Shown here one piece after another: positions 1,363 to 34,465 of a stretch of 34,465 nt of DNA. Positions within the stretch are counted from its first letter, which is position 1; every line of letters begins with the position of its first letter. Origin of the DNA: a virus (lineage: Duplodnaviria > Heunggongvirae > Uroviricota > Caudoviricetes); IMG/VR virus record IMGVR_UViG_2869924733_000010; one strand, given 5' to 3'. The position numbers and the translations under genes are program-made. A model generated the notes under the pieces. It worked only from the letters and a program-made list of their open reading frames with translations, searched no databases and was not told where the DNA came from.

Positions 1363-1446
1363 TTAATTTCGATTATTTTTCCCGGATGGAAAATTCTTAG
1401 AAACCGATCACATACAGCTGCATTTATTAAGGTTATCATCCGTTTC

Positions 1447-1533
1447 GCTGAAAAACATAACCCATAAAATGCTAGCTGTACCAGGAACCACCTCCTTAGC
1501 CTGTGTAATCTCCCTTACACGGGCTTATTTTTT
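1447..1533 (+). ncRNA. cyaR: CyaR (RyeE) Hfq-binding sRNA
   Basis: Sequence gctgaaaaacataacccataaaatgctagctgtaccaggaaccacctccttagcctgtgtaatctcccttacacgggcttatttttt matches remembered CyaR, with terminator hairpin and T-run; TATCAT -10 box 7 nt upstream. Confidence 0.8.
1507..1533. other. Probable P2 attachment core (attR) overlapping the cyaR 3' end
   Basis: aatctcccttacacgggcttatttttt is the reverse complement of the 27 nt P2 att core as I recall it; lies between host cyaR and phage ogr. Confidence 0.5.
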
Positions 1534-1934: not shown

Positions 1935-3098
1935 TTACTCATCACCTTCTGTTTCGTACTCCACATCAGAAAGCCTGACCTCAAGCTCTAAGGACGTCGT
2001 GAAGCCGCTATTATTCAGAAAGTGTGTCACCTTAGTGATTGTCCAGTCCTGCTCGTCTATGACGCGCTTAAAACCTGACACTTTGACCGGCGTTTCCGTG
2101 TAAATATCTGCCCGACCAGTAGCCAGACTGATGGAGAACTCCGCCACGCCCCGTTGCAGCTTATCCCACTTCGCCTGAGCGGCGCGCATGGCCTGCGCTT
2201 TTGTGGCATATACCGTAGTCAGGGCAAAAACGTTATCAGCCTCACCGGCCATGTATTCACCTTCGCGCGCTTCCGGTACTTTAGGCGCTTTCTTCTGCCT
2301 GACCGGTTTCGCTTTCGGGTGCTCCGGTGCGCGCAGGTGTTTCTCTTTCTTTTTGCGTTTCAGTTTTATCTTCTGCTTTTGTGGCTTCGGGTCTTTGGTG
2401 TGTAACCACTTTGCCATTACGCCGGTGTAGGCTCCACGGTCAGCAATCGCAAAATGATGACGGTCGCCGTCGCTGCGGGTGATGGTAATCTGCGGGATTT
2501 TTTTACCGCTGGCCGTCACCCCCTGCCCCGCTTTGAGAAACAGCAGTTTTCCCATTTTTACCGACACCTCACCGCCGTTGCGTTCAGCAAGGCGGGTCAG
2601 GAATTTCGCATCAGACTCCTGCGACTGGTCGATGTGCGGAATTTTAATTCCGGCCAGTGACGGAGCGACACTGGCTTCCAGCCTGTTCCGGGAGGCTATC
2701 GCCTCAACAATCGCACCGAGCGTGGTGTCATGCCATGAGCCTTCCCGGCGGGAATTGAGCGTCCCGCGAAAATCTGCACTCCGGGCGCGGATGGTGACCA
2801 CATCCGGTGCGCCCCGGTGTTCAACCTCATCAACGGTAAATTTCCCTTTGCATACCAGGGCAAAACCTTTCCAGCCGATATACACCGTCAGGACAGCGCC
2901 ACGAACCGGCAGCCCGACCTGCCCGTCGGCATCGTTCAGTTCAATATCAAGCTGGTCAGCCTCAAAGCCCCGGTTATCCGTCAGGGTCATGCTCATCAGA
3001 CGGTCGCTGATATTGCCGGTAATATCCCTGCTGTCGAGCATCAGCATGTAATCCGGCGTCAGCGTACTGCCTGCATCAAATGTCAGCGCATCCAGCAT
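1935..3098 (-). CDS. D: P2 gpD tail protein
   Basis: 387 aa, sequence and length match P2 gpD. Confidence 0.85.
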   Translation of the reverse strand: MLDALTFDAGSTLTPDYMLMLDSRDITGNISDRLMSMTLTDNRGFEADQLDIELNDADGQVGLPVRGAVLTVYIGWKGFALVCKGKFTVDEVEHRGAPDVVTIRARSADFRGTLNSRREGSWHDTTLGAIVEAIASRNRLEASVAPSLAGIKIPHIDQSQESDAKFLTRLAERNGGEVSVKMGKLLFLKAGQGVTASGKKIPQITITRSDGDRHHFAIADRGAYTGVMAKWLHTKDPKPQKQKIKLKRKKKEKHLRAPEHPKAKPVRQKKAPKVPEAREGEYMAGEADNVFALTTVYATKAQAMRAAQAKWDKLQRGVAEFSISLATGRADIYTETPVKVSGFKRVIDEQDWTITKVTHFLNNSGFTTSLELEVRLSDVEYETEGDE

Positions 3099-3577
3099 TA
3101 TCCCGCCCCCGTCATACCCGTGAATTTAGTCGCCATACTGCCAGCCTTACCGATGAGCGATTCCGCCTGTTTACCGATATCGCCATAAAGCGCGGCCAGT
3201 GACTCATCAACGCGGGTGAGCGACAGCGTAAAATCAATTTTCCGGGGTGTGCCGTCTGCAAAGAAAATACTCCCTGTTTCACTCACCTTGCTGATGACAT
3301 ACATGTCGTAAATCATGCCGGTGCCATCCAGCAACGGCCACGCCCGGCCTTCCTCTGCCATCAGTCTGAGCGTGGTCATCGTCAGCTTTCCGCCAGTCAG
3401 TTCGGGATAAAGCACACCGGCAAGTGTGATGTTCTCCTCACCTACACCGAGAAACTGATAGGCATCCCGTTTACCGATACGGGAATTTGACGGCCAGCGA
3501 TAATCTGATTCACGCTGCATGGTCTGATGTGGCAGCGTCTGGCGCATAAAAACAAACATACCTAACGCGAGCATCAT
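3098..3577 (-). CDS. U: P2 gpU tail protein
   Basis: 159 aa, matches P2 gpU. Confidence 0.85.
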   Translation of the reverse strand: MMLALGMFVFMRQTLPHQTMQRESDYRWPSNSRIGKRDAYQFLGVGEENITLAGVLYPELTGGKLTMTTLRLMAEEGRAWPLLDGTGMIYDMYVISKVSETGSIFFADGTPRKIDFTLSLTRVDESLAALYGDIGKQAESLIGKAGSMATKFTGMTGAG

Positions 3578-3591
3578 TTTTCGTCACCTCC

Positions 3592-6038
3592 TTAACCGTC
3601 ATGCATCATGCTGGCACGGGCGCGCGCTCGTTTATCCCGCTCGTATTTTTCGAGCGCATCCTGTAACTGGCGGTCAAGCTGTGTCCCCGGCGCAGTACCA
3701 CCGGTCAGGCTGATGTGATATTCGTTTTTACTCTGGTCCACATAAGAGCGGCCAGCCGGTGCCGTGACCGGCTGATAAGCCTGATAGCCTGCATAAGAGC
3801 TGGTCGCCGGAATATAACCACCGGTGCCATACGTGGCGGCATGAGTTCTGGCGGCGGTCTGGTCAAGTGTGTCTGACTCTTTGTTGATGACGCCGAGTTT
3901 TTCCAGTACCCAGTCAATACCGCTGCGCAGTTTGTTGAACGCATTAAGCGGCAGCATCAGCGCGTCAGCCAGTGCCTGCCCGAACATGACGCCCGTGTCA
4001 CGGCAACGGTTCAGGGTGTCCTGGGTGGCTTTGACCGGTGCAATCAGGTTTTTAAACCACTGCCACGCGGCCTGTAACTTTTCACCCAGCCAGTCAAACA
4101 CCGGCTTAAGTGGCGTGAACAGTTCCCCCACCGGCGCAAATGCCGCTTTCAGCCCTTCAACCACACCGCCGAAGAATACGCTGACAGGCTCCCAGTATTT
4201 ACGGATAAGCAACGCCCCGGCGACAATGGCGGCCACCACGGCCACAACCGGCCAGCTAATCGCCCCGATGGCCGTCATAACAGCACTGCCAACCGTCGTG
4301 AAGATTGCCCCCATTGCGCCTGCTGCCGCGATAATGGCATTGATGCCGGTGATAACCGGCCAGGCTACAAGACCAATGGCACCGATGATGCCAGTCAGCA
4401 CCAGTGCGCCACCGGCAATGAGGCCGATAGTTGACGCCAGTGATTTGTTTTTCTGTATCCAGCCGTCGAGTTTTAACACATACTTTGTGGCCGTCTGCGT
4501 GAGCTTACGCAGCGCGCCTTCCTGCTGGTCAAACAGGTCAGTCCCTACCGCCTCATAAGCGGACTGAAACTCCTTAAAGTCACCGCCGAGGTTGTCCTGC
4601 ATGATATTTACCAGCTCCGCGGTCTTCCCGTCTGAGGCTTTAAACGCAGCGGTCAGTTTGTCCAGCCTTCCGGTTGAGGCGGCAGTCATCAGCACAGCAG
4701 CGGCTGAGCTGGCCTCCTCCCCGAAAATGGTTTTCATGTATTCAGCCTGCTGGGCAGTACCGAGCCGGTTTTTATCAAAACTGGCCTGCATTTCTTTCAG
4801 AATGGTAAATACTGGCCGGGTGTTTCCCTTGCTGTCTGAGGTTTTCACACCAAGCTCTTTCAGTGCATCCCATGCTTTTCCCGTCGGTGCCTGCAGGCGG
4901 CTTAACACGGCACGGCTTCCCGTCCCCGCCATTGAACCGGTAATTTTTGCATCATGCAGTGCCCCGACCATTGCGGCGGTTTCTTCAATGCTGACACCGG
5001 CATTTTTTGCCACAGGTGCGGCATAGGTCAGCGCATCGCTCATGCCGTCAAAATCGGCGGCGGTTTTGTTCATCGTCATGGAGAGAACATCCCCGATATG
5101 AGCAACCTTATCGTTTGAAAGCTGAAAGGCGGATTTCATCCCCATCAGCAGGGCGGCGTTTTCTTCCATCGTGCGGCGGTTCGCCAGCGCCATATTCAGC
5201 GTGACCGGCGTTGCCGCCTGAATGGCATCAACATCTCCACCCGCTTTCGCAATGATAATCTGCGCACCGGCCGCATCATCCGCTGAGGCGGCGGTATTGT
5301 CACCGAGCTGGCGCGCCTGCTTGCGTAGCGCGGCCATTTCGGCGGAGTCTTTTGCCACTCCTAGCACGGCCTGCAATTCTGAGTTTTTCTGCGCAAACTC
5401 ATAACCGGGCATCAGCAACTTAACTCCGGCCATCGTTCCCGCCGCCGCAATCCCCACACCGGCAGCGCCTACTGAGGCCATATTTCCGGCCAGTTCCTTT
5501 CCGGCCTGATAACGCTGTTTTACTGCGTTAAGTTTTGCCTGTTGCGCACTGACACGCGCCAGCGCGTCGCGCTGACGGTTAAGTTGTGCGGTGGTTTCAC
5601 TGATACGGTTTTTCAGTCCCTGCTCATCATGTGCAAGATTGCGGGTATTAATTCCCACAGCGGCCAGTTCCCGCTGCTGGCGTTTAACGGAATCCGTCAG
5701 GCGGTTATATTTCGCCTGTAAGTCCTCCGCCGCACGCTTTGCGGATTCCAGCACTTTCGCCTGAGCACGGGTGGGACGTTCGGTGTTTTTAAACTGTGTG
5801 GCAAGGGCTTCGGCCTCCTGCCGTGCCTTTTCAAGTGCATGACCAGTCACGGCGAGCTGTGCACTGGTCTTGCGAAATCCCTCAATACGGGATGCGTGAC
5901 CGTTCAGCTCGCGCAGTGATTTTTGTGTTTCCCGGATATCCCCGACAGCGACTTGCTCGCTGTGCGGATGGATTTAAACGGGCGGGATGCCTGGTCAACA
6001 GCCCTGAGCAATACCTGTAATTTTACATTGTTACTCAT
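3592..6038 (-). pseudogene. T: Tail tape measure gpT with a 1-nt frameshift near the 5' end (or sequencing error)
   Basis: ATG at 6038 encodes MSNNVKLQVLLRAVDQASRPFKSIRTASKSLSG then leaves frame at a C4 run (5940..5943, plus strand); the 752 aa ORF 3592..5850 continues in another frame. Span is 2447 nt, one short of 2448 for an 815 aa protein. Confidence 0.7.
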
Positions 6039-7044: not shown

Positions 7045-8235
7045 TTAATTGCTGTTAACCGAGGTGACCAGATTTGCCTGGTATTTATCGGTAATACGCT
7101 GGCGCAGGGTCAGGTTTTCGAGAGGAGGCACCGGTGTATAGTCGTAGTCGATATACAGTTTTCCGGCCTTGAGGGTTTCCGCATCGTTGGATTCTTCGCT
7201 GAACCAGCAGGTCGCATCCACGATATAGCCGTTTGTTTTCAGCTCACGGAATTTGGCATTGATGCCGTCAACGATGTCGCGAATCAGCGTTGCGGTGATG
7301 GGCTTGTCCACCGCCCACATGTGCGCCTCAGCCATCGTGTCGGCCAGCACCTGCGCGGTGCGGGTGTAGTTTTCAAAGAGGAACAGCGGGTCATCAGAGC
7401 AGGTACGGTTACCCCAGAAGCGGAAACCGTCACGGCGAATCAGCGTTGTGACGCCTGACTCGTTAAGCAGGTCAGCATCGGTGCCGGACTCCTGCAAATC
7501 CCAGAATACGGACGCGCTGATGCCGGTAACACCGTTCACCCCGACGTTGGACAGCGTTTTATGCCAGCCCTGCTCCTGGTCGATTTTAGCGCGCAGCCCC
7601 AGCGCACGGGCGGTGGCATACGCGGTGGAGGTGGTACTGGTGACCGTATCCCATGCGAGGAAATCCGGCCAGATGACCATCAGCTCACGCTGGCTGAAAT
7701 TCTGGCGGTAGGCTTTCACCTCGGAAATGGTTTTACAGCCCCATGCGCTGATATACCCGAAAGCGCGCAGCTTCTGACAGACTGATGCCAGTGCAACAGC
7801 CACCTCTTTGGTATCCAGTCCCGGCACACCGAGAATGCGCGGTTTAACACCGGTTACCGACTCCGCCGCCAGCAGGGCTTTCAGTCCGGTGTACTGACCG
7901 TTTTCGTCGGTGGTGCCGATGATATTGGAAACGGTCTGCGCGAGCTTCGTTTCTTCGTCGTCGCCGGTGCCGTCTTCCACGCGCACAACAACGGTGACCG
8001 GTTTTGACTGGTCAGCGATGGCCTGTAACGACGCCGCCAGCGTGCCTTTTTTACCGGCCTTTGCAATTGCGCTCTGCACATTGGTAATCAGCACCGGTTT
8101 ATTGAGGGGGAAGGTTTCCGCATCTGCATCGCTGGCCGTGCAGACCATGCCGACAATGGCCGTGGATACGGTGGAAATGACGCGGGTGCCGTCGTTAATC
8201 TCCAGCACCTGCACGCCGTGATGATAGTCACTCAT
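7045..8235 (-). CDS. FI: P2 gpFI tail sheath
   Basis: 396 aa, matches P2 FI. Confidence 0.9.
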   Translation of the reverse strand: MSDYHHGVQVLEINDGTRVISTVSTAIVGMVCTASDADAETFPLNKPVLITNVQSAIAKAGKKGTLAASLQAIADQSKPVTVVVRVEDGTGDDEETKLAQTVSNIIGTTDENGQYTGLKALLAAESVTGVKPRILGVPGLDTKEVAVALASVCQKLRAFGYISAWGCKTISEVKAYRQNFSQRELMVIWPDFLAWDTVTSTTSTAYATARALGLRAKIDQEQGWHKTLSNVGVNGVTGISASVFWDLQESGTDADLLNESGVTTLIRRDGFRFWGNRTCSDDPLFLFENYTRTAQVLADTMAEAHMWAVDKPITATLIRDIVDGINAKFRELKTNGYIVDATCWFSEESNDAETLKAGKLYIDYDYTPVPPLENLTLRQRITDKYQANLVTSVNSN

Positions 8236-8427: not shown

Positions 8428-8458
8428 GTCTGCTTTGAGCGAGGAGCGGACATTGAGC
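8428..8458 (+). repeat. Copy Z of a ~30 bp conserved motif (core TGA-N11-ACA)
   Basis: gtctgctttgagcgaggagcggacattgagc resembles the minus-strand copies at 14100..14135 and 18095..18130. Confidence 0.5.
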
Positions 8459-8531
8459 TTGGTCTCAAGTATGCTGATTTTTTTTAGCTAATATCTTGGT
8501 TTTTTGATCAATAGGTTGCTGGTCAGACCTA

Positions 8532-9684
8532 AATAGCTGCGCGGAATAGTAGATCATTTTGAGGGAACTTAGCCCGGATTGTGCGATCTGATCAATCGCC
8601 AAATCAAAACAAATCACCAACCGGACTGAGCAATGCCGATCATAGCACCAATTTCCCGTGACGAACGACGCCTGATGCAGAAAGCCATCCATAAAACACA
8701 CGATAAAAATTATGCCCGCAGACTGACTGCCATGCTGATGCTGCACCGGGGCGACCGTGTCAGCGACGTTGCCAGAACGCTCTGCTGCGCCCGTTCCTCT
8801 GTTGGACGCTGGATTAACTGGTTCACGCAGTCGGGTGTTGAGGGACTGAAATCATTACCTGCCGGGCGTGCCCGTCGCTGGCCGTTTGAGCATATCTGCA
8901 CACTGTTACGTGAGCTGGTAAAACATTCTCCCGGCGACTTTGGCTACCAGCGTTCACGCTGGAGTACAGAACTGCTGGCAATAAAAATCAATGAGATAAC
9001 CGGTTGCCAGTTAAATGCCGGAACCGTTCGCCGCTGGTTGCCGTCTGCGGGGATTGTGTGGCGAAGGGCTGCGCCAACTCTGCGTATCCGTGACCCGCAT
9101 AAAGATGAAAAGATGGCAGCAATCCATAAAGCACTGGACGAATGCAGCGCAGAGCATCCGGTCTTTTATGAAGATGAAGTGGATATCCATCTTCATCCCA
9201 AAATCGGTGCGGACTGGCAACTGCGCGGACAGCAAAAACGGGTGGTCACGCCGGGACAGAATGAAAAATATTATCTGGCCGGAGCGCTGCACAGCGGGAC
9301 AGGTAAAGTCAGCTATGTGGGCGGCAACAGCAAAAGTTCGGCGCTGTTCATCAGCCTGCTGAAGCGGCTTAAAGCGACATACCGTCGGGCGAAAACCATC
9401 ACGCTGATCGTGGACAACTACATTATCCACAAAAGCCGGGAAACACAGAGCTGGCTGAAGGAGAACCCGAAGTTCAGGGTCATTTATCAGCCGGTTTACT
9501 CGCCATGGGTGAATCATGTTGAACGGCTATGGCAGGCACTTCACGACACAATAACGCGTAATCATCAGTGCCGCTCAATGTGGCAACTGTTGAAAAAAGT
9601 TCGCCATTTTATGGAAACCGTCAGCCCATTCCCCGGAGGCAAACATGGACTGGCAAAAGTGTAGCGGTATTAAGCGCAGCTATT
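8532..9684 (+). mobile_element. IS630, complete (1153 bp), TA target duplication in a CTAG context
   Basis: Terminal inverted repeats aatagctgcgc / gcgcagctatt; TA at 8530..8531 and 9685..9686; reconstructed target gaccTAggat. Confidence 0.85.
8633..9664 (+). CDS. IS630 transposase (DDE, Tc1/IS630 family)
   Basis: 343 aa ORF recognised as IS630-family transposase. Confidence 0.85.
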   Translation: MPIIAPISRDERRLMQKAIHKTHDKNYARRLTAMLMLHRGDRVSDVARTLCCARSSVGRWINWFTQSGVEGLKSLPAGRARRWPFEHICTLLRELVKHSPGDFGYQRSRWSTELLAIKINEITGCQLNAGTVRRWLPSAGIVWRRAAPTLRIRDPHKDEKMAAIHKALDECSAEHPVFYEDEVDIHLHPKIGADWQLRGQQKRVVTPGQNEKYYLAGALHSGTGKVSYVGGNSKSSALFISLLKRLKATYRRAKTITLIVDNYIIHKSRETQSWLKENPKFRVIYQPVYSPWVNHVERLWQALHDTITRNHQCRSMWQLLKKVRHFMETVSPFPGGKHGLAKV

Positions 9685-9755
9685 TAGGATCAGATATAAA
9701 AAGTATGATTTTATTCTCCCCACATAGATGAAAAAAACAAAGAAGCATAACTTTT

Positions 9756-10332
9756 ATGACCAAGACAAATAGGCACAACTTTCCTCCAAGCGTTGTAGGT
9801 AAGGTAGCAGAGCGCGCTACATATATTTGTAGCAATCCCTCTTGTCATAGGGTAACAATCGGCCCGGATCAATTGGCGGAAAATCTTTCTATCAAGACGG
9901 GTGAGGCGGCGCATATCTGCGCGGCGAGCCCTGGCGGACCGCGCTATGACATGTCTCAGTCAGAAACAGAGCGGAAGAGCATAAAAAATGCTATATGGTT
10001 GTGCGGAGCTTGTGCTGATTTAGTTGATAAGAATGGCGGTATGGGCTACCCCGCCGAGTATTTGCGAAAATGGAAACGTGACCACGAATCACTAATGAAG
10101 GAGTGCTTGGAGGGAGGAAAGAGGCTAATGTTTCAATTTCTATCGCATCGCCCAGACGAGAAAATTGCTCTGCGGTTGATCCATTTATTGGAAGACAAGA
10201 GTTCTCTTTATCTGCCATATGCTCAAGAGGATCCAGCACGAGTCTCGGATTCTTTGAAGGAGCTCCGACTCTCTCTTACGGCGATTCGCTCCGAGATTGC
10301 ACCTGAGTCTCCGCTATCGTTGATCGTCGAGT
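9756..10332 (+). pseudogene. 5' part (codons 1..192) of an HNH-like zinc-finger protein gene, interrupted by IS911
   Basis: CSNPSCH ... AAHICAASPGGPRYD ... NAIWLCGACADLVDKN matches the HNH pattern CxxC..H..N..CxxC with the last His replaced by Ala; the ORF tail after residue 192 is IS911 sequence. Confidence 0.6.
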
Positions 10333-10667
10333 TGAAGTGGCACACTGAATTTGGCCACCTGAACAGAGGTGATATGCTCACCTCAGAACAACACAGGTGC
10401 TCCAATGAAAAAAAGAAATTTTAGCGCAGAGTTTAAACGCGAATCCGCTCAACTGGTTGTTGACCAGAAATACACGGTGGCAGATGCCGCCAAAGCTATG
10501 GATGTTGGCCTTTCCACAATGACAAGATGGGTCAAACAACTGCGTGATGAGCGTCAGGGCAAAACACCAAAAGCCTCTCCGATAACACCAGAACAAATCG
10601 AAATACGTAAGCTGAGGAAAAAGCTACAACGCATTGAAATGGAGAATGAAATATTAAAAAAGGCTAC

Positions 10668-12796
<2,129 letters not shown>

Positions 12797-12804
12797 CCAC
12801 TTCA

Positions 12805-12983
12805 AGTCAATTGTCCGTGCGTGCCGACACTATATGAATTCAACGCCAGATCGGCCGGGCATTGAGGAGCTTAACTTCTCCCTCGGCGCAGTTCGTAAGG
12901 TAGTAGGAATTAACATCGGAGAACTATTGAAACACTATGAAATCCAGGTGAGTCACGAATTGCATTCTATTATTCCTAAATGA
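12805..12983 (+). pseudogene. 3' part of the IS911-interrupted HNH-like gene
   Basis: Removing IS911 and one AGT copy joins ...IVE to SIVRACRHYMNSTPDRPGIEELNF...IIPK in frame, giving a ~250 aa protein. Confidence 0.6.
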
Positions 12984-13144
12984 ATTTTAACCAATAACTC
13001 AAGTTGGCGAAGCCTGAAAAAGATGAGCTTCGCCATTTTTCTCGGACCTTGAGTAATTAGTGCAGACACAATAAGCATATTGTTTTCGAGTGCACGACGA
13101 ACGTAGTTTTCGATACTTTGAGTATTATAGCTTCAACTTTTTAC

Positions 13145-13930
13145 TTACATCAAAAATAACTTACAATATTTGTAAGTTGCTTTGTGTACGAAAATGCTTG
13201 CGTCAACTCTTGACATCGGATTTTTTAATATCCCTCCGGAACTTCCCTTTCCATGTCTCGCAAGATACCCTAACAGTTCAAAGCTATTAGCAGTGCCCGT
13301 GAATCTGCTGATTTCCTTTTCATCAATATTAAAAGCCATGCTAATTACTTTATCTCTCTGATATTTCTTGCCTTTATAAGCGTCGGGGAAATTTAGTATA
13401 CCTTTCACATATTTATCATATACATATTCTCTAATTGTTTCCCACAAACGATAAAGATTAACCCAATCATAACCTAAGGCACACATACCTAAAACAACAC
13501 GTAAGGATTCATGTTTAGATGATAAATTAATTAATCGTGAAAAATTATCAGCGCGAGGGTGTGGTTGCTGTATGTCATGGAAATTAAAGGGGTTTACCTG
13601 AGTTACATCCATTGATTTAAAGCCGCATATTTCCGAGTAATTAATGCCTTCACTTCCAGAAATAGAAAGAGGACCAAAAGATTGATATCTTTCAAAACCA
13701 TAAAGAACGCTAAGTGCGCCGTTCATGAGCATCAACAAACCTTTTAACTTGGAAGCCAATTCATTTGGGTCGGATATGATATTCAAATGAGGAGATGAAA
13801 GTAAATGAATATCTGTTTGCCCTAAATCAGAGTCAGAATCATCATTTATAGAGAAATCATTCGACCAAACTCCACATAATCCTTTAACAAATCCTGTAGA
13901 TGGAGTAAGTAAAAAACTATAATCGTACAT
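13145..13930 (-). CDS. Hypothetical protein, 261 aa, AT-rich orphan cargo gene
   Basis: Long ORF in low-GC DNA convergent with the HNH-like gene; no family recognised. Confidence 0.6.
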   Translation of the reverse strand: MYDYSFLLTPSTGFVKGLCGVWSNDFSINDDSDSDLGQTDIHLLSSPHLNIISDPNELASKLKGLLMLMNGALSVLYGFERYQSFGPLSISGSEGINYSEICGFKSMDVTQVNPFNFHDIQQPHPRADNFSRLINLSSKHESLRVVLGMCALGYDWVNLYRLWETIREYVYDKYVKGILNFPDAYKGKKYQRDKVISMAFNIDEKEISRFTGTANSFELLGYLARHGKGSSGGILKNPMSRVDASIFVHKATYKYCKLFLM

Positions 13931-14099
13931 AACTCAAATCCCTCTTTTTTATATCCTAAATGGAATACAAAAATTATTGTTTATTTGTTATGTTCAATAT
14001 ACTCACATAACCGAAAACTTTAACACGCTCATTCTAAGTGAACTAAATCTAAAGATATACCTTTGAAAACTGAAAACTCAATGCTGGCAACGTCCGCTC

Positions 14100-14135
14100 C
14101 TGGCACAAAGCGAACATTCCTTGACGTCCTGTCAG
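14100..14135 (-). repeat. Copy X of the ~30 bp conserved motif (core TGT-N11-ACG), ~190 nt upstream of the 261 aa ORF
   Basis: 28 of 35 positions identical to the copy at 18095..18130. Confidence 0.55.
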
Positions 14136-14200
14136 GGAAACCCACCTGGACGTTCAGGTGATTCTGTCGATTATAGTCATAAAAAAGCCGCCCCGGAGGG

Positions 14201-15501
14201 CTGAGGAATTCCCAGAAAACGAGACAGACATAGCATTATGTGATCTACTGATTTGTGCCAACAATTCAATGAGATCACTGCTATGCCTGTTCATAAAGTA
14301 TGTCAGAATTTCTTCCGGGATGCCTTAGCACCATTTCATCAGTACCGACAAAATGCCCTGATGGATGCCACAGTGGCGTTAATCAACGGAGCATCTCTGA
14401 CGCTGACCAGTATCGGACGTTTTTTCCCGGGTAATGCACAAGTTAAGAATAAGAGCAAACGTATTGATCGCCTCATGGGTAATGAGGCGCTCCATCGCGA
14501 TATTCCAATGATTTTCAGGAATATCACTTCAATGCTGACACGGCAGTTATCTTTATGTGTAATAGCCGTAGACTGGAGTGGCTATCCCTCCCAGGAGCAT
14601 CATGTTCTTCGTGCCAGCCTTCTGTGTGACGGGCGTTCCATTCCGTTATTGAGTAAGGTTGTTCCTTCTGAAAAACAAAATAATCCATTGATACAACATG
14701 ATTTCCTTGATTCCCTTGCTCAATCCCTGCCCCCCGATGCCAGGGTTATTATTGTCACGGATGCTGGATTTCAGAGCGCATGGTTTCACCATATTACTTC
14801 TCTGGGCTGGGATTTTATTGGTCGGATCAGAAATAACGTTCAGTATTGCCTCGATAACGCGCCTGAAAGATGGTTAAAAGTGTCGGATAGCCCTGAATGT
14901 AAAACACCGGAATATATGGGGGCTGGAAGGCTGGTTAAAGAAAGGAAAAAAAGCATCCGGGGGCATTTTTACACCTATAAGAAATCGGCAAAAGGGCGAA
15001 AAAAGAAACGTTCGAAAGGTCAGAGTGGTTTAAACAAAACAGACAAAGAACAGAGCAAATCAGCAAAAGAAGCCTGGTTGATCTTCAGCAGTACAAATGA
15101 CTTCAGAGCGCGAGAAATCATCAAGTTATACAGTCGGCGAATGCAGATAGAGCAAAACTTTCGTGATGAAAAGAACGGGCGCTTCGGATTTGGTCTTCGG
15201 GCCAGCAAAAGTCGTTCAACAGGAAGAATTCTGGTTCTGAGTCTGCTGGCAACGTTGAGCACTATCGTAATGTGGTTACTCGGTTATCACGCTGAAAATA
15301 AAGGGTTACACCTGAAATATCAGGCTAACAGCATTAAATCCCGGCGGGTTATCTCATATCTGACGTTAGCGAAGAATGTTCTTCGACACTCGCCACTTAT
15401 TTTAAGACGAACAGTACTGAGCACAGTTCTAAACCATCTGTCCAGAACCTACCGAAATATGGTGCTGGTTTATTAGCAGTAATTTTGTGGGGATCCCTCA
15501 G
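14201..15501 (+). mobile_element. IS10-like element (IS4 family), 9 bp duplication CCCGGAGGG
   Basis: Ends CTGAGGAATTCCCA / CTGAGGGATCCCCA (inverted); duplication at 14192..14200 and 15502..15510. Confidence 0.8.
14253..15476 (+). CDS. IS10-like transposase
   Basis: 407 aa; KRIDRLMGN, VTDAGFQSAWF and YSRRMQIEQNFRDEK align with IS10 transposase. Confidence 0.8.
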   Translation: MCQQFNEITAMPVHKVCQNFFRDALAPFHQYRQNALMDATVALINGASLTLTSIGRFFPGNAQVKNKSKRIDRLMGNEALHRDIPMIFRNITSMLTRQLSLCVIAVDWSGYPSQEHHVLRASLLCDGRSIPLLSKVVPSEKQNNPLIQHDFLDSLAQSLPPDARVIIVTDAGFQSAWFHHITSLGWDFIGRIRNNVQYCLDNAPERWLKVSDSPECKTPEYMGAGRLVKERKKSIRGHFYTYKKSAKGRKKKRSKGQSGLNKTDKEQSKSAKEAWLIFSSTNDFRAREIIKLYSRRMQIEQNFRDEKNGRFGFGLRASKSRSTGRILVLSLLATLSTIVMWLLGYHAENKGLHLKYQANSIKSRRVISYLTLAKNVLRHSPLILRRTVLSTVLNHLSRTYRNMVLVY

Positions 15502-15659
15502 CCCGGAGGGACGGCTATAAACTCGCCAGTTAACAAGCTGATTTTACCGCTTACGCGGTTCTGTCGTTGCGGTGTTCGCTGACCCACTGCGCCTTTACAG
15601 TTTATCGCTTATGAATCCATGAGCCTTAAATGTCCTGACAAAATCCTCATAGCGCGCAA

Positions 15660-16277
15660 TCATCCCCCCGATGTTTCACGCACATTTTGCTGATGAAAGC
15701 GGAAGTTTGCCTCCGATTCAACACTCTTACTCTTCCAGTCATGGGGAAGGCTTAGCATCACTGGCTTTCTGTTCGGGTAATCAACACTCATAAATGGTAG
15801 CGTACTATCTACGTATGCGGTCATAGCGTCCAAAAAAGCGTCTTTCGCACCATTCACTTCAGTATTGAATAACCGATACTTTTCACCGCTAAATTTTTCA
15901 GCTTTTTCAATGTTTAAGCAAACATCTTGCCGTATACCGCTCAGGTAGCTCTGCTCAACCCATTGAGTAGTATCCTCATAAGGCAGCAATTCAAGGATCT
16001 GGTCGATTATCTTCAGATCATGTTCATCTTGCTTTTTTTTTACAGGGTCCTCAGTAGATTCATTGGATGTGTGGTAAACGTTGGTGGTCTGATTAATATC
16101 CCGCCCGGCCTGGTTCACATCACCCTCGGTTTTCTTTGCCTTCTGTTTTATGTTGTTTTGCTGTCTGATTCTATATGTAACACCGCCCCCAATACCAAAC
16201 AGTGCCAGTACGCCGACTAATAAGCTAAGATAGGTAGCTGCGTCTGCACCAAAATGTGCATTAAGCCATTCAGTCAT
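15660..16277 (-). CDS. Hypothetical membrane-anchored protein, 205 aa (N-terminal TM helix), cargo gene
   Basis: Hydrophobic segment YLSLLVGVLALFGIGGGV then a polar ~170 aa domain; stop codon sits directly on a G6 run, so the 3' end is uncertain. Confidence 0.55.
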   Translation of the reverse strand: MTEWLNAHFGADAATYLSLLVGVLALFGIGGGVTYRIRQQNNIKQKAKKTEGDVNQAGRDINQTTNVYHTSNESTEDPVKKKQDEHDLKIIDQILELLPYEDTTQWVEQSYLSGIRQDVCLNIEKAEKFSGEKYRLFNTEVNGAKDAFLDAMTAYVDSTLPFMSVDYPNRKPVMLSLPHDWKSKSVESEANFRFHQQNVRETSGG

Positions 16278-16363
16278 TTGAACTATGTCCTTACAGTGTG
16301 AGTAAGGATTATAATAACAGAGCTAACTTGCGCAGAAACGAAAAAAGGCAGGTGGATTTGCCC

Positions 16364-17269
16364 CTATATTTCCAGACATCTGTTATCACTTAACCCATTA
16401 CAAGCCCGCTGCCGCAGATATTCCCGTGGCGAGCGATAACCCAGCGCACTATGCGGATGCCATTCGTTATAATGCTCGAACGCCTCTGCAAGGTTCTTTG
16501 CTGCCGTTAACCCGTCTGGTTTGGGCATGATACTGATGTAGTCACGCTTTATCGTTTTCACGAAGCTCTCTGCTATTCCGTTACTCTCCGGACTCCGCAC
16601 CGCCGTGTTCTTCGGTTCAAGTCCCAACATCCGGGCGAACTGGCGTGTTTCATTAGCCCGGTAGCATGAACCATTATCCGTCAGCCACTCCACTGGAGAC
16701 GACGGAAGATCGTTGCCGAAGCGGCGTTCCACCGCTCCCAGCATGACGTCCTGTACTGTTTCACTGTTGAAGCCGCCGGTAGTCACCGCCCAGTGCAGTG
16801 CCTCACGATCACAGCAGTCCAGCGCGAACGTGACACGCAGTCTCTCTCCGTTATCACAGCAGAACTCGAACCCGTCAGAGCACCATCGCTGATTGCTTTC
16901 TTTCACGGCCACTCTGCCTGTATGTGCCCGTTTCGATGGCGGTACAGCAGGTTTTCGCTCAAGCAACAGCGCATTCTGGCGCATGATCCGGTAAACACGT
17001 TTGGCATTGTTCGCAGGCATACCATCAAGTTCTGCCTGTCTGCGAAGCAGCGCCCATACCCGACGATAACCATACGTGGGCAGCTCTCCGATAACATGGT
17101 GTATACGGAGAAGCACATCCGTATCATCAGTGTGACGACTGCGGCGGCCATCCATCCAGTCATCGGTTCGTCTGAGAATGACGTGCAACTGCGCACGCGA
17201 CACCCGGAGACAACGGCTGACTAAGCTTACTCCCCATCCCCGGGCAATAAGGGCGCGTGCGCTATCCAC
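16364..17269 (-). CDS. insD: IS2 transposase InsD
   Basis: 301 aa, recognised as IS2 InsD. Confidence 0.9.
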
Positions 17270-17592
17270 TTTTTTGCCCGTCCATATTCAACGGCTTCTT
17301 TGAGGAGTTCATTTTCCATCGTTTTCTTGCCGAGCAGGCGCTGGAGTTCTTTAATCTGCTTCATGGCGGCAGCAAGTTCAGAGGCAGGAACAACCTGTTC
17401 TCCGGCGGCCACAGCAGTAAGACTTCCTTCCTGGTATTGCTTACGCCAGAGAAATAACTGGCTGGCTGCTACACCATGTTGCCGGGCAACGAGGGAGACC
17501 GTCATCCCCGGTTCAAAGCTCTGCTGAACAATTGCGATCTTTTCCTGTGTGGTACGCCGTCTGCGTTTCTCCGGCCCTAAGACATCAATCAT
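17227..17592 (-). CDS. insC: IS2 InsC
   Basis: 121 aa from internal Met [13 protein letters not shown]. Confidence 0.85.
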
Positions 17593-18094
17593 CTGTACTC
17601 CAATGACTAGTCTAAAAACTAGTATTAAGACTATCACTTATTTAAGTGATACTGGTTGTCTGGAGATTCAGGGGGCCAGTCTAGCAGGGGAGGTAACCCC
17701 CCTGCCTTTAATCAAGTTCCTCCATCCCTTACGGGCGTCCGGTCAGTTGCTTGATGACAACCAGACCAGCTAGCATTATTTGCATCACCAGTAAGACTGT
17801 TGTTAGCGTTATCACTTCGACGTCTCCTCTTCCAGGAGAGCGCCACACGTAGTAAGTGCTTTTGGTTCTACCCGCCCCCCTCACTCCGCATACCATTAGT
17901 TAGCAGGTACAAGCAGCACTCTTTCGTGTGGTAAGCAAACAGGACAGCACTGGACTGACGCCTTGAGCTTTAATATTTCCTTCCGATCCATACAACTAGG
18001 TCTGTTAAAAGCCCCTAGGACGAATTCTACAGAGATGGCTATGGTGCAGGTTTCGGCTATAGGGCTCTTTGATGTAATCGAGGGTCATAACGTT

Positions 18095-18130
18095 GGCAAT
18101 GTCTGCTCCTGGCACAGAGCGGACTATCAG
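18095..18130 (-). repeat. Copy Y of the ~30 bp conserved motif (core TGT-N11-ACA), just downstream of the G stop
   Basis: ggcaatgtctgctcctggcacagagcggac; overlaps a 9 bp stem hairpin ggcacagag..ctctgtgcc. Confidence 0.55.
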
Positions 18131-18173: not shown

Positions 18174-18701
18174 TTATTGCGGCATTTCCGGCCATTCAGG
18201 ATTTGCAGGATCCACACGACTGACCAGAACGCTGTAGCGTTCCCATGATTCCAGTCGGCTACGCTCCTCATCTGTTGCCATGTTCAGTCTGACCGCGCGC
18301 TCCAGCGGCAAAATCACGGATTCAGCATCTGCAAGAAGTCTGGCTTTCCGAATTTCTGCCTGCTGCTGTAATTCCTCTGCCGTATAAACGCGTTTAATCA
18401 CTTTGCCGTCCTTAAACATCCAGTTCCCTGAAATGTCCGCCCGTCGGTTAGCAGTAATATCCGCCACTTCAACAACACTTAATCCATCCGGTCTGATAGC
18501 TGTCACATCCTTTTCCACATAGTGGATGATATTATCTTTGTCGTACGCTATTTTTATCGTGTCATCAGCAAAATACTTTTGTTCTTCGTACCAGTTCTTA
18601 CCATCTTCTGAAAAAAACCAGACAACATCAAAGTCCTTTGTCAATTGATATTGTTCAACCGTTTTTGGATTACCCGCCGTAATATTTTTTAAATGCTGCA
18701 T
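18174..18701 (-). CDS. G: P2 gpG tail fibre assembly protein
   Basis: 175 aa, matches P2 G. Confidence 0.85.
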
Positions 18702-18704
18702 AAA

Positions 18705-20810
18705 TTATACCTGCACCACGTTATACCATGTCCCGTTAATGTATTTCTGCACCGGTCTGTAATATACGCCACCAATGTTATCGGCAGAGTTTGAGCCGGT
18801 ATCCTGAACAATAATGCCGGTATATACGCAACCTGACGGAGCCTGATGCGTCCATGTAGTACCATTATTTGCTGGTTTATATGTAGATGCACCGCCCAGC
18901 CGCATGTCTCTCACATAACGTGAATCTGACTCAGTTTTGGTGTATGCACCAACATCTCCCGCTGAGGGTTTATGAGCAGTTGTATATAGTTGCGCCCATC
19001 CAGACCAGTTAGCATCTGTGGTATCTCGTCGGGAACGAATATATGCCGGAGCATGAGCACCGCTGGTTCCACTCCAACCAATAAGTAACTCACCCTCTCC
19101 TACTGCGGTTACGCCAGTGAGATGAAGCACATTACCATAGGCTGTTGGGTAGCCATTGTTGTATGCCTCATACATCTGAATACCTGGTGTCCCCTTTACG
19201 CTCCCACCTAATGCAGTAACACGGTTTCTGGATACCAGTGTATTAATATTTATATCGGCAGAGCCATCAAATCTGACACCATTAATATTTCTTGCGTTCG
19301 CTAACTTCGTTGCTGTTGCAGCATTTCCTGAAAGGCTGGAAATAAATGGATGTGAACAGTAATAACCACGTCCATTTTTAAAATCCAGAATAGCCTGTGC
19401 GTTCGTGCTTTCTGTAGCGGGATTAGTTGCCCCCCACTTATATGTCGTTTGACCGACGACATAATCCTCTGTCGGAACAATAACCGTTAGCCCTTCCTCT
19501 GCAAGAATTTGTACAGGGAAAGCTCTGGCTTCAACATAAAAAACACTACATACATCATCATCTTTCAGGCTTGTAACAATGGAATGGATTGAACGCTCAT
19601 TAGTCTGATACGTCCAGTAATAACCTGCCGCATATGAACCACGATCAGTCCAGCCTCCGGGCATAACCATGCCATTAAACTCGCAGTTATTCATTACATA
19701 ATCGCCGTTATAACAACCAGTGGAAATAACAACGCGGGATGCCATTTCTCCTGAAAGGCTGGCAGCACGGCGAAAGATAACGGGGTACCACTTCCCGGCA
19801 ACGACATTTGCAGGGGCTGCAAACGAATACTTTCGCATTCCCTTTTTCTTATCCACTTCACCTTTGCTGTAAACATTAATGTTACTCAGGAAGCGTTCTT
19901 TATCAGGGATATCCGCACCGTTCTGATCTTTCTGAAGACGTTTTTCAGCATTGTCATAGGCAGACTTCACCGCCTTTGGCGTTGCAGCCTGCGTTTCAGA
20001 ATCACTGTTGGTGGCGCTACTGAGCTGAACAAGGCCTTTTCGCGCTGTTGTGGCATCCTGTGCAGTGTATTTCCCGTTAGCAAGGTCATATGCTTTCGGC
20101 GTTGCGGCGAGCGTTTCAGACGTGCTGTTAGTCGCACTACTGAGCTGAACAAGGCCTTTTCGCGCGGTGGTGGCATCCTGCGCGGTATATTTCCCGTTAG
20201 CAAGGTCATAGGCGGTCTTTACCGCTCTCGGCGTTGCAGCCAGTGTTTCAGACATGCTGTTGGTCGCACTGCTTAACTGAGTAAAACCTTTTGCGGTCAG
20301 CGAGGCGTCCGGGTGACGTCGTGACTGTTCGTGCTCTGCAATTTTGTCATCAACGTAATCCTGCGTCGCCATCACCGTTGTGGTGTCAATGGTCAGCTCC
20401 ACTGAGGCCACACTGCTGACGATGATGACCATACGGCAGGTCTGCGAACGCCCTGAGCCTTCGGCAAGAGCTGGCTTATAACTTTCGGCCATGTTCGCCA
20501 CGGCAATTAACGTTCCCGCATCATCGTACAGGCCAAGCTCACGCATCCAGAAACCGCCCACCTCCGGCGGAATAACCAGCTCTGCGATAATATAATTACT
20601 GTTTCGTTTGTCTTGGCTGATTTTGTTCAGCGCATGTCGCCAGACTTCATGGATAAGCCCGGTCTGTCCGGCATCCGGGACAGGCAATTTACCACCGCCA
20701 TCCCCGACGGCCATCGTGGTAATGTTGACCTTCCGCCCTCCCGGTGCGGTTGCCGCTGCCAGCTTTGCTGCACCGGCAGTGGTGATAACGGTTCTGAATT
20801 TTGTGCTCAT
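18705..20810 (-). CDS. H: P2 gpH tail fibre
   Basis: 701 aa; conserved N-terminal region and internal repeats. Confidence 0.85.
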   Translation of the reverse strand: MSTKFRTVITTAGAAKLAAATAPGGRKVNITTMAVGDGGGKLPVPDAGQTGLIHEVWRHALNKISQDKRNSNYIIAELVIPPEVGGFWMRELGLYDDAGTLIAVANMAESYKPALAEGSGRSQTCRMVIIVSSVASVELTIDTTTVMATQDYVDDKIAEHEQSRRHPDASLTAKGFTQLSSATNSMSETLAATPRAVKTAYDLANGKYTAQDATTARKGLVQLSSATNSTSETLAATPKAYDLANGKYTAQDATTARKGLVQLSSATNSDSETQAATPKAVKSAYDNAEKRLQKDQNGADIPDKERFLSNINVYSKGEVDKKKGMRKYSFAAPANVVAGKWYPVIFRRAASLSGEMASRVVISTGCYNGDYVMNNCEFNGMVMPGGWTDRGSYAAGYYWTYQTNERSIHSIVTSLKDDDVCSVFYVEARAFPVQILAEEGLTVIVPTEDYVVGQTTYKWGATNPATESTNAQAILDFKNGRGYYCSHPFISSLSGNAATATKLANARNINGVRFDGSADININTLVSRNRVTALGGSVKGTPGIQMYEAYNNGYPTAYGNVLHLTGVTAVGEGELLIGWSGTSGAHAPAYIRSRRDTTDANWSGWAQLYTTAHKPSAGDVGAYTKTESDSRYVRDMRLGGASTYKPANNGTTWTHQAPSGCVYTGIIVQDTGSNSADNIGGVYYRPVQKYINGTWYNVVQV
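19946..20297. repeat. Tandem ~120 nt coding repeats inside tail fibre gene H
   Basis: Protein segment YDLANGKYTAQDATTARKGLVQLSSATNS occurs twice in full with partial flanking copies. Confidence 0.7.
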
Positions 20811-22256: not shown

Positions 22257-22604
22257 TCAACTCACAGGGATGGTTAACGAAAGTGGCTGGCCGGTGTCGT
22301 TGTGCTGGCCGGTTAACGTGACCGTCATTCGCCCATCAAAGCTGCGCGCCGTGGTGACGGATGACAGGGTGACGCGGGGTTCCCATTTCAGCACCGCCAT
22401 GTAACAGGCGACCTTAATCTGCAACTCAAGCGCCGGGGTCTGCGGCTGGTCAATCATTGACGCCAGCAACGAGCCGTAATCACGACGCATCACCCGTGAG
22501 CCGACCGGTGTGCGCAGGATATCGCCGATACTCTGGCTGATATGCTCAAGGTCAGTGACCGTCAGGCCATCACTGCGATTCATTCCAAGATAACGCGCTG
22601 TCAT
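22257..22604 (-). CDS. W: P2 gpW baseplate protein
   Basis: 115 aa. Confidence 0.85.
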   Translation of the reverse strand: MTARYLGMNRSDGLTVTDLEHISQSIGDILRTPVGSRVMRRDYGSLLASMIDQPQTPALELQIKVACYMAVLKWEPRVTLSSVTTARSFDGRMTVTLTGQHNDTGQPLSLTIPVS

Positions 22605-23230
22605 AGAGGACTCCCGGTTGTGCCGCCGCTGTCGCCGGGGTGTTTATGGGTATGCAGTACCTTACCGTTTGATGAGAGTTCACCGCCGGTATGTTTAATG
22701 TTGCCGCGCATCGTCCCGCCCTTCTGCACTTCCAGCGTGCCGGTAATCAGTCTGTTGGTGCAGACCACCTCCGGGGTGTCCAGGGTGATGCGGGTTGACG
22801 CTTTCACCATGACCACCGGCACCGTGGCAGTAACAGAATCAGAAGCCGTCACGCTGGCCGTTTTAATTCCGCTTACCGTGAGTGCACTGGTTTCGGGTTC
22901 ATACTCAATCACCGCCCCGTCAGGGAAACGGATATGCAGGGCATCCGCCGACGCAGACGGCGCGGGGTTATCGCAGGAATAAATCCCCGGCAGAACGAAC
23001 GCCGTGTCGAGTTCACCGCCCACGGCCAGAATCAGCACCTGTTCCCCCACGGAAGGTGCCCACCATGTGCGCGAACGTCCGGCGCGATGGGTCAGCCACT
23101 GAAGCCAGTCGGTGCACATGCCGCCGGTCTGCACACGGCAGCGACCGGCATTAAGGTCGGTTTCGACAATAATGCCAGTGCGAATCATATTGCGTATAAA
23201 GCGAAGAATTTCATTGTATTGTGCATTCAT
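22601..23230 (-). CDS. V: P2 gpV baseplate spike
   Basis: 209 aa from internal Met MNAQYNEILRFIRNMIRTGIIVETD; ORF track start at 23308 is too long. Confidence 0.8.
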   Translation of the reverse strand: MNAQYNEILRFIRNMIRTGIIVETDLNAGRCRVQTGGMCTDWLQWLTHRAGRSRTWWAPSVGEQVLILAVGGELDTAFVLPGIYSCDNPAPSASADALHIRFPDGAVIEYEPETSALTVSGIKTASVTASDSVTATVPVVMVKASTRITLDTPEVVCTNRLITGTLEVQKGGTMRGNIKHTGGELSSNGKVLHTHKHPGDSGGTTGSPL

Positions 23231-23316
23231 TCGATAATAATGATTCTGTACAATCTCGAAGTAAATCACACCACGATTTCTGGTGCACAGAACAACAAGG
23301 GACAACAAAATCCATT

Positions 23317-23883
23317 ATGAGTACTTACTTTTTCTCGTCAGAAACAATGAAAGAATTGTTCAAAGATTATCTGGTCTTTTTGAACACGCTGACTCCCGGC
23401 ACAAACTTTGAATCAAACAGAAACAAAATAATTGCTCAAGCAATAAACTTCATTTCCGAAAACCCTGAAGATTGGGACAAAAAATCCCAGCACAACATTG
23501 CTATGATTGGCGACACCTTTAAAAGTTTCTTAAGAAAAAAGGGAGAAGATAACAACAGCATCAACCTTATATTCACTTGCTTTTTTAGCTTTATCATTGA
23601 ACCAAGCATTCTCTCTCCGGAAATAGAGTCTCACTTTTCACCACTAAGAACCATCAAGGATTTTGCTCTGTATAACTATAATGAATTCGATGAGCGGAGC
23701 AGAGCACAGATAGACTTTTCTCTTAGAGAACTGCCATTAGCAATGGTTAAAGAAGTTTTAAGCTCCAGCAATGTTGACACATATAAAAAATACATTGATA
23801 GTTTAAACGAAGGGCGTCAATTTTTCGAAAAGTGCGACTCCTTCTTAAAGGAGCAACATGCCAAAATAGAGTCAATCAAATAG
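23317..23883 (+). CDS. Hypothetical soluble protein, 189 aa; first gene of the S-V insert
   Basis: ATG at 23317 (MSTYFFSSETMKELFK...) in low-GC DNA, divergent from V; no family recognised. Confidence 0.6.
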   Translation: MSTYFFSSETMKELFKDYLVFLNTLTPGTNFESNRNKIIAQAINFISENPEDWDKKSQHNIAMIGDTFKSFLRKKGEDNNSINLIFTCFFSFIIEPSILSPEIESHFSPLRTIKDFALYNYNEFDERSRAQIDFSLRELPLAMVKEVLSSSNVDTYKKYIDSLNEGRQFFEKCDSFLKEQHAKIESIK

Positions 23884-23969
23884 TCATTAAAAGGGTATGA
23901 GGTCGCATTTAATTTTGTTGGATTGTTTGAAGGCTTTAATTCACTTGGCAAAAAAAAGAAAGTGCAATC

Positions 23970-24389
23970 ATGCTATCAAGAATAATTCTTATCATCTTGG
24001 CTATAATCATTCCCTCCCAGCTGATATACTATGGAATGCATAAATTACCAGCTCTCGAAACGACAAATGCTGCCACATATTTTATGTCAGCACTACCTTT
24101 TGCATCAGTTACATTGATTTTCATGTATTACTTTAGAGTTGTACTGCTAAATCATATATCGTTACGAACTCAGATTATGCAAATAGAACTCAGAAAGAGC
24201 CTTTGTCAGTTCATTCAGAGTTATAGCGACTATTCCTCAGAGATAAGGAAAAACAATCCGGAAGCGCTTTCAAAATTCGAAGACGTAGTATTTTCAAACA
24301 TCATGCTATCCGATGATAAGATACCATCTACATTTGATGGCATTGAGCAAATAGCATCGTTAATCAATTCATTAAAAAATGGAAAGTAA
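23970..24389 (+). CDS. Hypothetical small membrane protein, 139 aa, two N-terminal TM helices; second gene of the S-V insert
   Basis: Hydrophobic segments IILIILAIIIPSQLIYY and ATYFMSALPFASVTLIFMYYF; followed by a terminator. Confidence 0.6.
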   Translation: MLSRIILIILAIIIPSQLIYYGMHKLPALETTNAATYFMSALPFASVTLIFMYYFRVVLLNHISLRTQIMQIELRKSLCQFIQSYSDYSSEIRKNNPEALSKFEDVVFSNIMLSDDKIPSTFDGIEQIASLINSLKNGK

Positions 24390-34035: not shown

Positions 34036-34425
34036 CGCCCGCTTCATGGGTCGGTTTGAATGCAGTTGAATTACAACTACCAAACCAAGCAATCCCTACT
34101 ATTACGCAGAAAATGCATACTGAAATACCTCGTGCAAATTGATGCAGCTAAGTATGCATAGGTTTTATGCCTCAACGTATACGTTATCAAACAGAGCCCT
34201 GTTCAAAAACAGTATCAAAATATGGTAGGAGAGGATAAGCACACAGAAAGAAAATCAGGATGCATGCATATGTCGTTGTTTCATCGTAACAAGCATTAGT
34301 ATATAAATTACCATGTGCTAATTTATGTCTTAAGGTTGCCCCACTCTTTCTGTTAAAAAGAACATCGATAGTCAAAACAAGATTTTTAGAAAAGATACTT
34401 TCCAAATCATCTCTGCATTTATCTA

Positions 34426-34465
34426 AATAGCTGCGCTTAATACCGCTACACTTTTGCCAGTCCAT
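34426..34465 (-). mobile_element. Second IS630 copy, terminal 40 bp only (continues past the window), inverted relative to the first
   Basis: aatagctgcgcttaataccgctacacttttgccagtccat equals the reverse complement of 9646..9684; TA at 34424..34425 after a C. Confidence 0.8.

Follow-up and report, generated by a model that had tools for sequence, protein, structure and literature searches.

The window analysed here is a viral sequence of 34,465 nt (IMG/VR record IMGVR_UViG_2869924733_000010; "the window" denotes its full length) and constitutes a P2-like prophage adjoining the gene for the small RNA (sRNA) CyaR. Our subject is an intact open reading frame (ORF) of 261 amino acids (aa) at 13145-13930, which a sequence-only reading had described as a low-GC orphan, convergent with an HNH-like gene, that might be either an independent single-gene module or a partner of this neighbour. 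Its product is DS-29, which defends against phages as a stand-alone protein and is carried as cargo by the prophage. The gene is already known as a validated single-gene defence; what we add is its prophage-cargo context, a facultative and inactivated neighbour with HNH and DUF6650 domains, an invariant Arg-His-Gly (R-H-G) signature, and cassettes delimited by palindromes. The best explanation taken as a whole, in which DS-29 defends on its own through what may be an HEPN-like RNase activity and the HNH-DUF6650 gene is separate, is one that we regard as quite probable.

The 261-aa ORF encodes DS-29, carried as prophage cargo

The extent of the ORF had been read exactly. It lies on the minus strand, begins with ATG and has a GC content of 0.349 (0.28 at third codon positions), as compared with 0.514 for the window in a composition profile, and the AT-rich region reported upstream of it is also present, with 27% GC in the 150 nt directly 5′ of the frame. 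At the composition of the ORF, 261 stop-free codons would arise by chance with p ~2e-9. Comparison with orthologues from Klebsiella, Citrobacter and Proteus (93%, 89% and 83% nucleotide identity) gave ratios of non-synonymous to synonymous substitution rates (dN/dS) of 0.30, 0.22 and 0.36, respectively, and the frame is therefore under purifying selection and conserved as coding. The gene forms a single-gene unit, since its 3′ neighbour is convergent and a gap of ~355 nt, here enlarged by an insertion sequence (IS), separates it from the upstream gene for a 227-aa protein. The hairpin and T-run listed in Table 1 sit within the 161-bp spacer between the convergent DS-29 and HNH-DUF6650 genes and, judged by their sequence, likely represent the terminator of the latter; a consensus terminator scan missed this hairpin because its loop exceeds 8 nt.

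BLASTP aligned the window protein without gaps to WP_061089765.1, with 260 of 261 residues identical. The sole difference is at residue 246, which is Ile in the window and Asn in WP_061089765.1, and which varies freely in an alignment of the DS-29 family. WP_061089765.1 bears the working name 'HEP3' and the system name DS-29 in the DefensePredictor study (DeWeirdt et al., bioRxiv 2025 / Science 2026; PMC13092281). Because of the near-complete identity to validated DS-29, both the identity and the biological role of the window gene are already published. The study lists DS-29 as one coding sequence with defensive=TRUE (Table S6) and describes an assay in which this gene alone was supplied to E. 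coli MG1655 from a low-copy plasmid, with -log values of the efficiency of plating (EOP) of 6.34 for Bas60, 5.0 for T4, 3.70 for Candy and 1.26 for RB69 (Table S7); for RB69, plating was cut ~18-fold. The phages blocked are thus of the T-even type, together with Bas60. The study also groups DS-29 with HEPN nucleases, extends its homologues to archaeal Halobacteria, and places WP_001375234.1, the E. coli allele found in the same cassette in strain F41, in the WP_061089765.1 cluster (Table S10). The window gene resembles DS-29 as reported there in being a single-gene unit of the same length, and differs in being chromosomal cargo of a P2-like prophage amid IS elements. A 'hypothetical protein' of such a prophage can now be named as validated DS-29.

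As shown in Table 1, the CyaR gene lies just outside the prophage end, a position consistent with a P2-type integration site beside cyaR; it was the only match in an Rfam scan of the window and lies outside the DS-29 locus. The locus is flanked by the P2-type genes gpFI and gpG, which places DS-29 in the gpG-gpFI cargo region, the site of Z/fun in P2. Phage P2 has cargo ('moron') loci at Z/fun between G and FI, at tin and at old. The window shares with these the gpG-gpFI site and low-GC anti-phage cargo, but its cargo genes are different, and two cassettes and four IS elements are present. Mapping by BLAST against intact E. coli copies resolved one contiguous cargo block broken by four insertions, in the order 8428-8531, IS630, 9685-10332, IS3 carrying IS30, 12802-14200, an IS4-family element, 15502-16356, IS2 and 17684-18107. 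The IS4-family insertion parts the region upstream of DS-29 from the 227-aa gene. DS-29 is the only cargo gene that is intact, the other two of three having been inactivated. Five IS copies lie in or beside this one 10-kb locus (IS630 twice, IS3 with nested IS30, an IS4-family element and IS2), a load typical of Shigella or some E. coli lineages.

Table 1. Coordinates of features in the window
Feature	Position	Strand	Basis
CyaR sRNA gene, just outside prophage end	1445-1530	+	Rfam, 100.7 bits
gpD	1935-3098	-	Pfam
P2-type tail sheath gpFI, one flank of hotspot	7045-8235	-	Pfam
Palindrome copy GTCTGCT-N10-AGCGGAC, left edge of cargo block, upstream of HNH-DUF6650	8428-8451	+	
IS630	8532-9684		BLAST map
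HNH (His-Me finger) plus DUF6650 gene, 5′ part, codons 1-192	9756-10332	+	ORF list, BLAST map
IS3-family element carrying IS30; orfA from 10369, orfB 11957-12796	10333-12801	+	ORF list, BLAST map
IS30 inside IS3, inverted repeats at 10668/11888	transposase 10675-11826	-	
HNH-DUF6650 gene, 3′ part, last 58 codons	12802-12983	+	BLAST map
GC-rich hairpin, 8-bp stem GGCGAAGC/GCTTCGCC, 13-nt loop, then T-run	13006-13034	+	read from sequence
DS-29 gene, 261 aa, intact, ATG start	13145-13930	-	ORF list, BLASTP to WP_061089765.1
Shine-Dalgarno-like GAGGG, 9 nt 5′ of DS-29 ATG	13940-13944	-	read from sequence
Palindrome copy GTCCGCT-N10-AGCGAAC, border of DS-29/HNH cassette and 227-aa cassette	14092-14115	+	
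IS4-family insertion; DDE_Tnp_1 transposase 14253-15476	14201-15501	+	ORF list, Pfam, BLAST map
227-aa island gene copy, frameshifted near codon 205; open frame 15660-16277	15595-16278	-	BLAST map, translation
IS2	16357-17683		BLAST map
Palindrome copy in P2 backbone, ~50 nt downstream of gpG	18101-18124	+	
P2-type tail-fibre assembly gpG, other flank of hotspot	18174-18701	-	Pfam
Tail fibre gpH	18705-20810	-	Pfam
Spike gpV	22601-23308	-	Pfam
Further IS copy	34423-34465		

The description of the ORF as an orphan did not survive database searches. An indexed search returned 32 clusters at 45-90% identity, plus one at 24%, all of those named belonging to Enterobacterales, and an exhaustive profile search (E<=1e-3) returned 1,167 representative clusters, nearly all of them encoding proteins of 230-290 aa; the family, which spans phyla, thus numbers at least 1,167 clusters. 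Genome loci of the family include Pseudoalteromonas, Alteromonas, Sphingomonas and several Bacteroidota. Distant homologues, for which 11 loci were gathered with a narrower alignment, count among their neighbours integrases, a KAP NTPase, Schlafen/AlbA_2 and a protein with a DarT domain; the defence or mobile context of the family, seen in the window as prophage cargo, therefore spans phyla. Domain libraries were uninformative: the ORF product and 56 relatives gave no useful match in Pfam, NCBIfam, PADLOC, PHROGs or PDB sequences, with no Pfam match at E<=0.01 for any of the 57 and a lone PHROG match (E 0.008, one relative) that was disregarded. These searches found no TIR or cyclase signature in DS-29, and the BFVD viral structures contained nothing at E<=0.001 for its model.

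The HNH-DUF6650 neighbour and the question of pairing

The convergent arrangement with an HNH-like gene is real, but the neighbour is not intact, having been split after codon 192 by IS3::IS30; the first 192 codons occupy 9756-10331 and the final 58 occupy 12808-12983. An intact copy elsewhere (L001:11427-12179) encodes 250 aa. The N-terminal HNH domain of the neighbour matches PADLOC PDC-M68A (E 2e-24, residues 9-119) and HNH effectors of the CBASS/SAVED type, while the DUF6650 assignment comes from its RefSeq name and precomputed PF20355 matches; a local Pfam hmmscan did not reproduce it, with nothing at E<=1. DUF6650 is ThsG, the effector of type VI Thoeris, which is activated by 2′cADPR (2′ cyclic ADP-ribose) and paired with a TIR protein (bioRxiv 10.64898/2025.12.03.692087). 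The annotated presence of this domain is the likeness of our locus to type VI Thoeris. The locus differs in that a TIR gene is not consistently adjacent, being near HNH-DUF6650 in only one of six contexts (L031), in that DS-29 is not a TIR, and in that the Thoeris effector has transmembrane helices or no extra domain whereas the neighbour has an N-terminal HNH. DS-29 is recurrently paired with an HNH protein annotated with a type VI Thoeris effector domain, without TIR. As for PDC-M68, the neighbour's HNH alone matches, to PDC-M68A; DS-29 and its 56 relatives match no PADLOC model, and DS-29 is therefore not a recognised component of that system. HNH-DUF6650 resembles an 'orphan effector' that may itself be a single-gene defence.

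In the examined relatives at or above ~90% identity, DS-29 and HNH-DUF6650 invariably adjoin each other in convergent orientation, and six or more contexts show this: the E. coli e14/icd site, a CP4-type island, a Klebsiella ArdA/SSB leading region, an smpB-adjacent island, a umuDC locus and the P2 hotspot. The pairing is limited to this narrow Enterobacterales clade. Homologues that do not have the HNH gene were found in Citrobacter (85%, beside KAP NTPase and SMC-like genes), at a Proteus prophage end (76%), in a prophage (66%), in a Pantoea integrative and conjugative element (62%), in K. aerogenes (45%, beside DUF2971 and SIR2) and in Pseudoalteromonas (30%), and no HNH-DUF6650 homologue was found within 4 kb at the 11 distant loci. 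Conversely, the HNH-DUF6650 family (at least 398 clusters in several phyla) includes solitary members at a lambdoid Q-holin moron site in E. coli, between Aeromonas core genes and in one metagenomic lineage. The single-gene validation and the occurrence of each gene alone support reading the two as independent modules, brought together in one cassette within a narrow lineage. Since the two genes are convergent, they have separate transcripts; HNH-DUF6650 is a second, separately transcribed candidate defence gene that DS-29 does not need, and the data support its being a facultative rather than an obligate companion. Of the two roles that had been offered for the ORF, that of an independent module is upheld, because the cloned gene of a protein with a single different residue gives defence by itself (PMC13092281), homologues at or below 85% identity have no HNH gene, and the HNH gene of the window is disrupted while the ORF is intact. 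The partnership is not supported as an obligate relation, nor is co-occurrence across genomes, which had been proposed as a check, conserved outside the closest relatives. The choice between module and partner is thereby settled.

Three other accounts of the ORF bear on its relation to this neighbour or on its being a gene at all. DS-29 and HNH-DUF6650 might form one two-gene system, for example with DS-29 as sensor of infection or source of a signal and DUF6650 as the domain that then switches on the HNH nuclease. The unfailing adjacency of the close pairs speaks for such a system; in E. coli F41, moreover, a palindrome copy lies on either side of the pair, so that both genes occupy one cassette. 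The DUF6650 effectors of type VI Thoeris are activated by a signal, and the HNH domain matches CBASS-type effectors as well as PDC-M68A, from a candidate multi-gene system. We nonetheless consider it improbable: lone DS-29 protects 10^5-10^6-fold in MG1655, and the distribution of the genes, their separate transcripts, the missing PDC-M68 match and TIR or cyclase signature of DS-29, and the survival of DS-29 beside a destroyed HNH gene all count against it. Largely refuted, and very improbable in our estimate, is the proposal that the ORF product is an immunity or antitoxin protein neutralising the HNH nuclease. Its similarity in size to the HNH partner, the position of its gene next to that of a nuclease and the failure of libraries to recognise an enzymatic domain in it would fit this role, but DS-29 defends alone and has stayed intact after inactivation of the nuclease gene, co-occurrence is conserved in neither direction, and a convergent layout is unusual for toxin-antitoxin pairs. 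Finally, the IS-riddled locus and its damaged cargo genes (two of three) might suggest that the frame is open by chance, or belongs to a pseudogene decaying in AT-rich junk flanked by IS elements; this is scarcely credible for a frame with the above chance probability, dN/dS of 0.22-0.36 and a full-length product 99.6% identical to a functional protein.

Invariant residues and a candidate mechanism

Two structure models of DS-29 were built, one from 23 sequences (predicted local distance difference test score, pLDDT, 83) and one from 145 (pLDDT 94; predicted template modelling score, pTM, 0.91). The model consists of a small N-terminal alpha/beta domain (strands 5-9, 27-30, 42-45 and 89-94) and a helical bundle (helices 55-85, 129-150, 156-175, 192-223 and 241-260). 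The sequence-only reading had seen no recognisable catalytic motif in the protein. With respect to library matches this stands, but conservation tells a different story: across the 145 sequences, at ~25% identity, R225 and H226 alone are invariant, and S46, G71, L159, Y160, F210, N215, G221 and G227 are nearly so, giving the family signature FTGTANxFxxLGxxARHG. R225-H226(-G227) are adjacent, in a loop ~14 residues ahead of helix 241-260. These non-canonical residues are clear targets for mutagenesis.

R-H-G is not the canonical Rx4-6H motif of HEPN nucleases, which stands at the start of the last helix, and in the 145-sequence alignment no conserved His occurs 4-6 residues past the Arg. An hhalign comparison with a canonical HEPN nuclease gave a probability of 1%, and the published HHpred probability for PF18867 is only 0.57-0.59 (PMC13092281). 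HEPN proteins were over-represented among the best fold matches for both independent models. An invariant Arg-His pair is reportedly what metal-independent HEPN RNases use, a description that goes back to Anantharaman and colleagues in 2013. Known HEPN RNases (the MNT-HEPN toxins HI0074 and SO_3166, AbiD/F, Cas13, Csm6) have Rx4-6H where DS-29 has adjacent R-H-G; DS-29 also has the extra N-terminal alpha/beta domain and a long insert (95-128), and is without a partner antitoxin or MNT gene.

The C-terminal helical bundle (~129-260) may be a divergent HEPN-like domain. Its putative metal-independent RNase site would comprise the R225-H226-G227 loop and N215, perhaps with S46/H48 of the N-terminal domain. 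The enzyme would be kept inactive until a phage infects, whereupon it would cleave host and/or phage RNA and lead to abortive infection.

Several points weigh against our overall interpretation. The DefensePredictor study gives neither mutants nor biochemistry for DS-29 (PMC13092281), and the protection it reports was obtained with the N246 allele, whereas the window carries I246. The DS-29 locus of the window is riddled with IS elements, and a consensus promoter/terminator scan found no consensus sigma-70 promoter 5′ of the gene. As to mechanism, we infer an infection-activated RNase of a divergent, HEPN-like and metal-independent type that acts abortively, and we give this part of the interpretation slightly less than an even chance. 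A serious rival, though a rather unlikely one, is that DS-29 acts without RNA cleavage. The bundle would then serve as scaffold or sensor, while binding of a nucleotide or phage protein, or catalysis of some other reaction, would fall to the R-H-G loop, such as depletion of NAD+ or nucleotides or modification of protein or nucleic acid. The enrichment of HEPN proteins among the fold matches of two independent models, the placement of an invariant Arg-His pair just ahead of the last helix and the HEPN-nuclease class given to DS-29 by the authors of PMC13092281 argue for the RNase instead.

Border palindromes and other cargo

A conserved motif of ~30 bp had been noted upstream of the ORF. It is present at 14085-14115 and 18094-18124, with 0 copies expected in shuffles, but the former copy lies 155-185 nt 5′ of the DS-29 ATG rather than about 190. 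Its core is a 24-nt imperfect palindrome, GTCYGCT-N10-AGCGRAC, with a 7-bp stem and a 10-nt loop. Three copies occur in the window, as compared with a mean of 0.01 matches in window shuffles, and they bracket the HNH/DS-29 cassette and the cassette of the 227-aa gene. The copy at 18101 belongs to backbone common to many Peduovirus genomes. Similar arrangements occur elsewhere. In E. coli F41 (L002), palindromes at 11212, 11254, 13288 and 14651 part a DS-38-like HEPN gene, the DS-29 pair, the 227-aa gene and the island backbone; in E. coli SE11 (L003), copies at 4225/6001 bracket different cargo that includes the PADLOC candidate PDC-S31; and the free P2-like Escherichia phage 899 (L052) has copies at 3260/3302/5006, of which one closely follows gpG and two separate its two cargo genes.

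The palindrome might serve in exchange, in processing or as a binding site for a protein. The crossover sites of phage invertases (hix/gix/pix) were considered for the motif and provisionally set aside, the AAACCAAGGTTT core of their consensus not being present. A more elaborate proposal, which we offer with considerable doubt, is that the palindromes are exchange signals by which defence cassettes are swapped whole between the gpG-gpFI hotspot of P2-like phages and the variable region of CP4-type islands, as a small integron-like system without a recognised integrase, and that the DS-29/HNH-DUF6650 pair is kept as one cassette for complementary function. The movement of cargo genes may be explained by border palindromes, which phage and island hotspots have in common.

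The 227-aa gene is a conserved backbone gene of CP4-type islands, where it lies beside a YeeP-like GTPase gene, and its product, for which a hydrophobic helix is predicted at the N terminus, matched no family. Table S10 of DefensePredictor includes the cluster of this gene (WP_000141344.1) among predicted novel defence genes, and no test of the cluster was found in the tables consulted (PMC13092281). We rejected the 227-aa gene as a third member of the module, as it is island backbone with other cargo beside it in SE11 and a palindrome parts it from DS-29. Truncation of this gene by the IS4-family element was likewise rejected; judged by the BLAST map and its translation, the insertion is a simple one and the frameshift a separate event.

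In E. coli F41, the DS-29 pair is directly preceded by a cassette for a protein of 366 aa (L002 10069-11169) that matches PADLOC HEC-08 (E 4e-174) and shares length and layout with DS-38 ('HEP2'). The latter is an HEPN plus Zn-finger protein of the DefensePredictor study (PMC13092281). With this cassette next to the DS-29 pair, validated or candidate defence genes are stacked cassette by cassette. A second low-GC island (GC ~0.34) occupies 23221-24389 on the plus strand, within the P2 tail/baseplate block beside gpV. It contains two ORFs (220 and 139 aa), opposite in direction to the phage genes and with no Pfam or PADLOC match, and is possibly another cargo hotspot.
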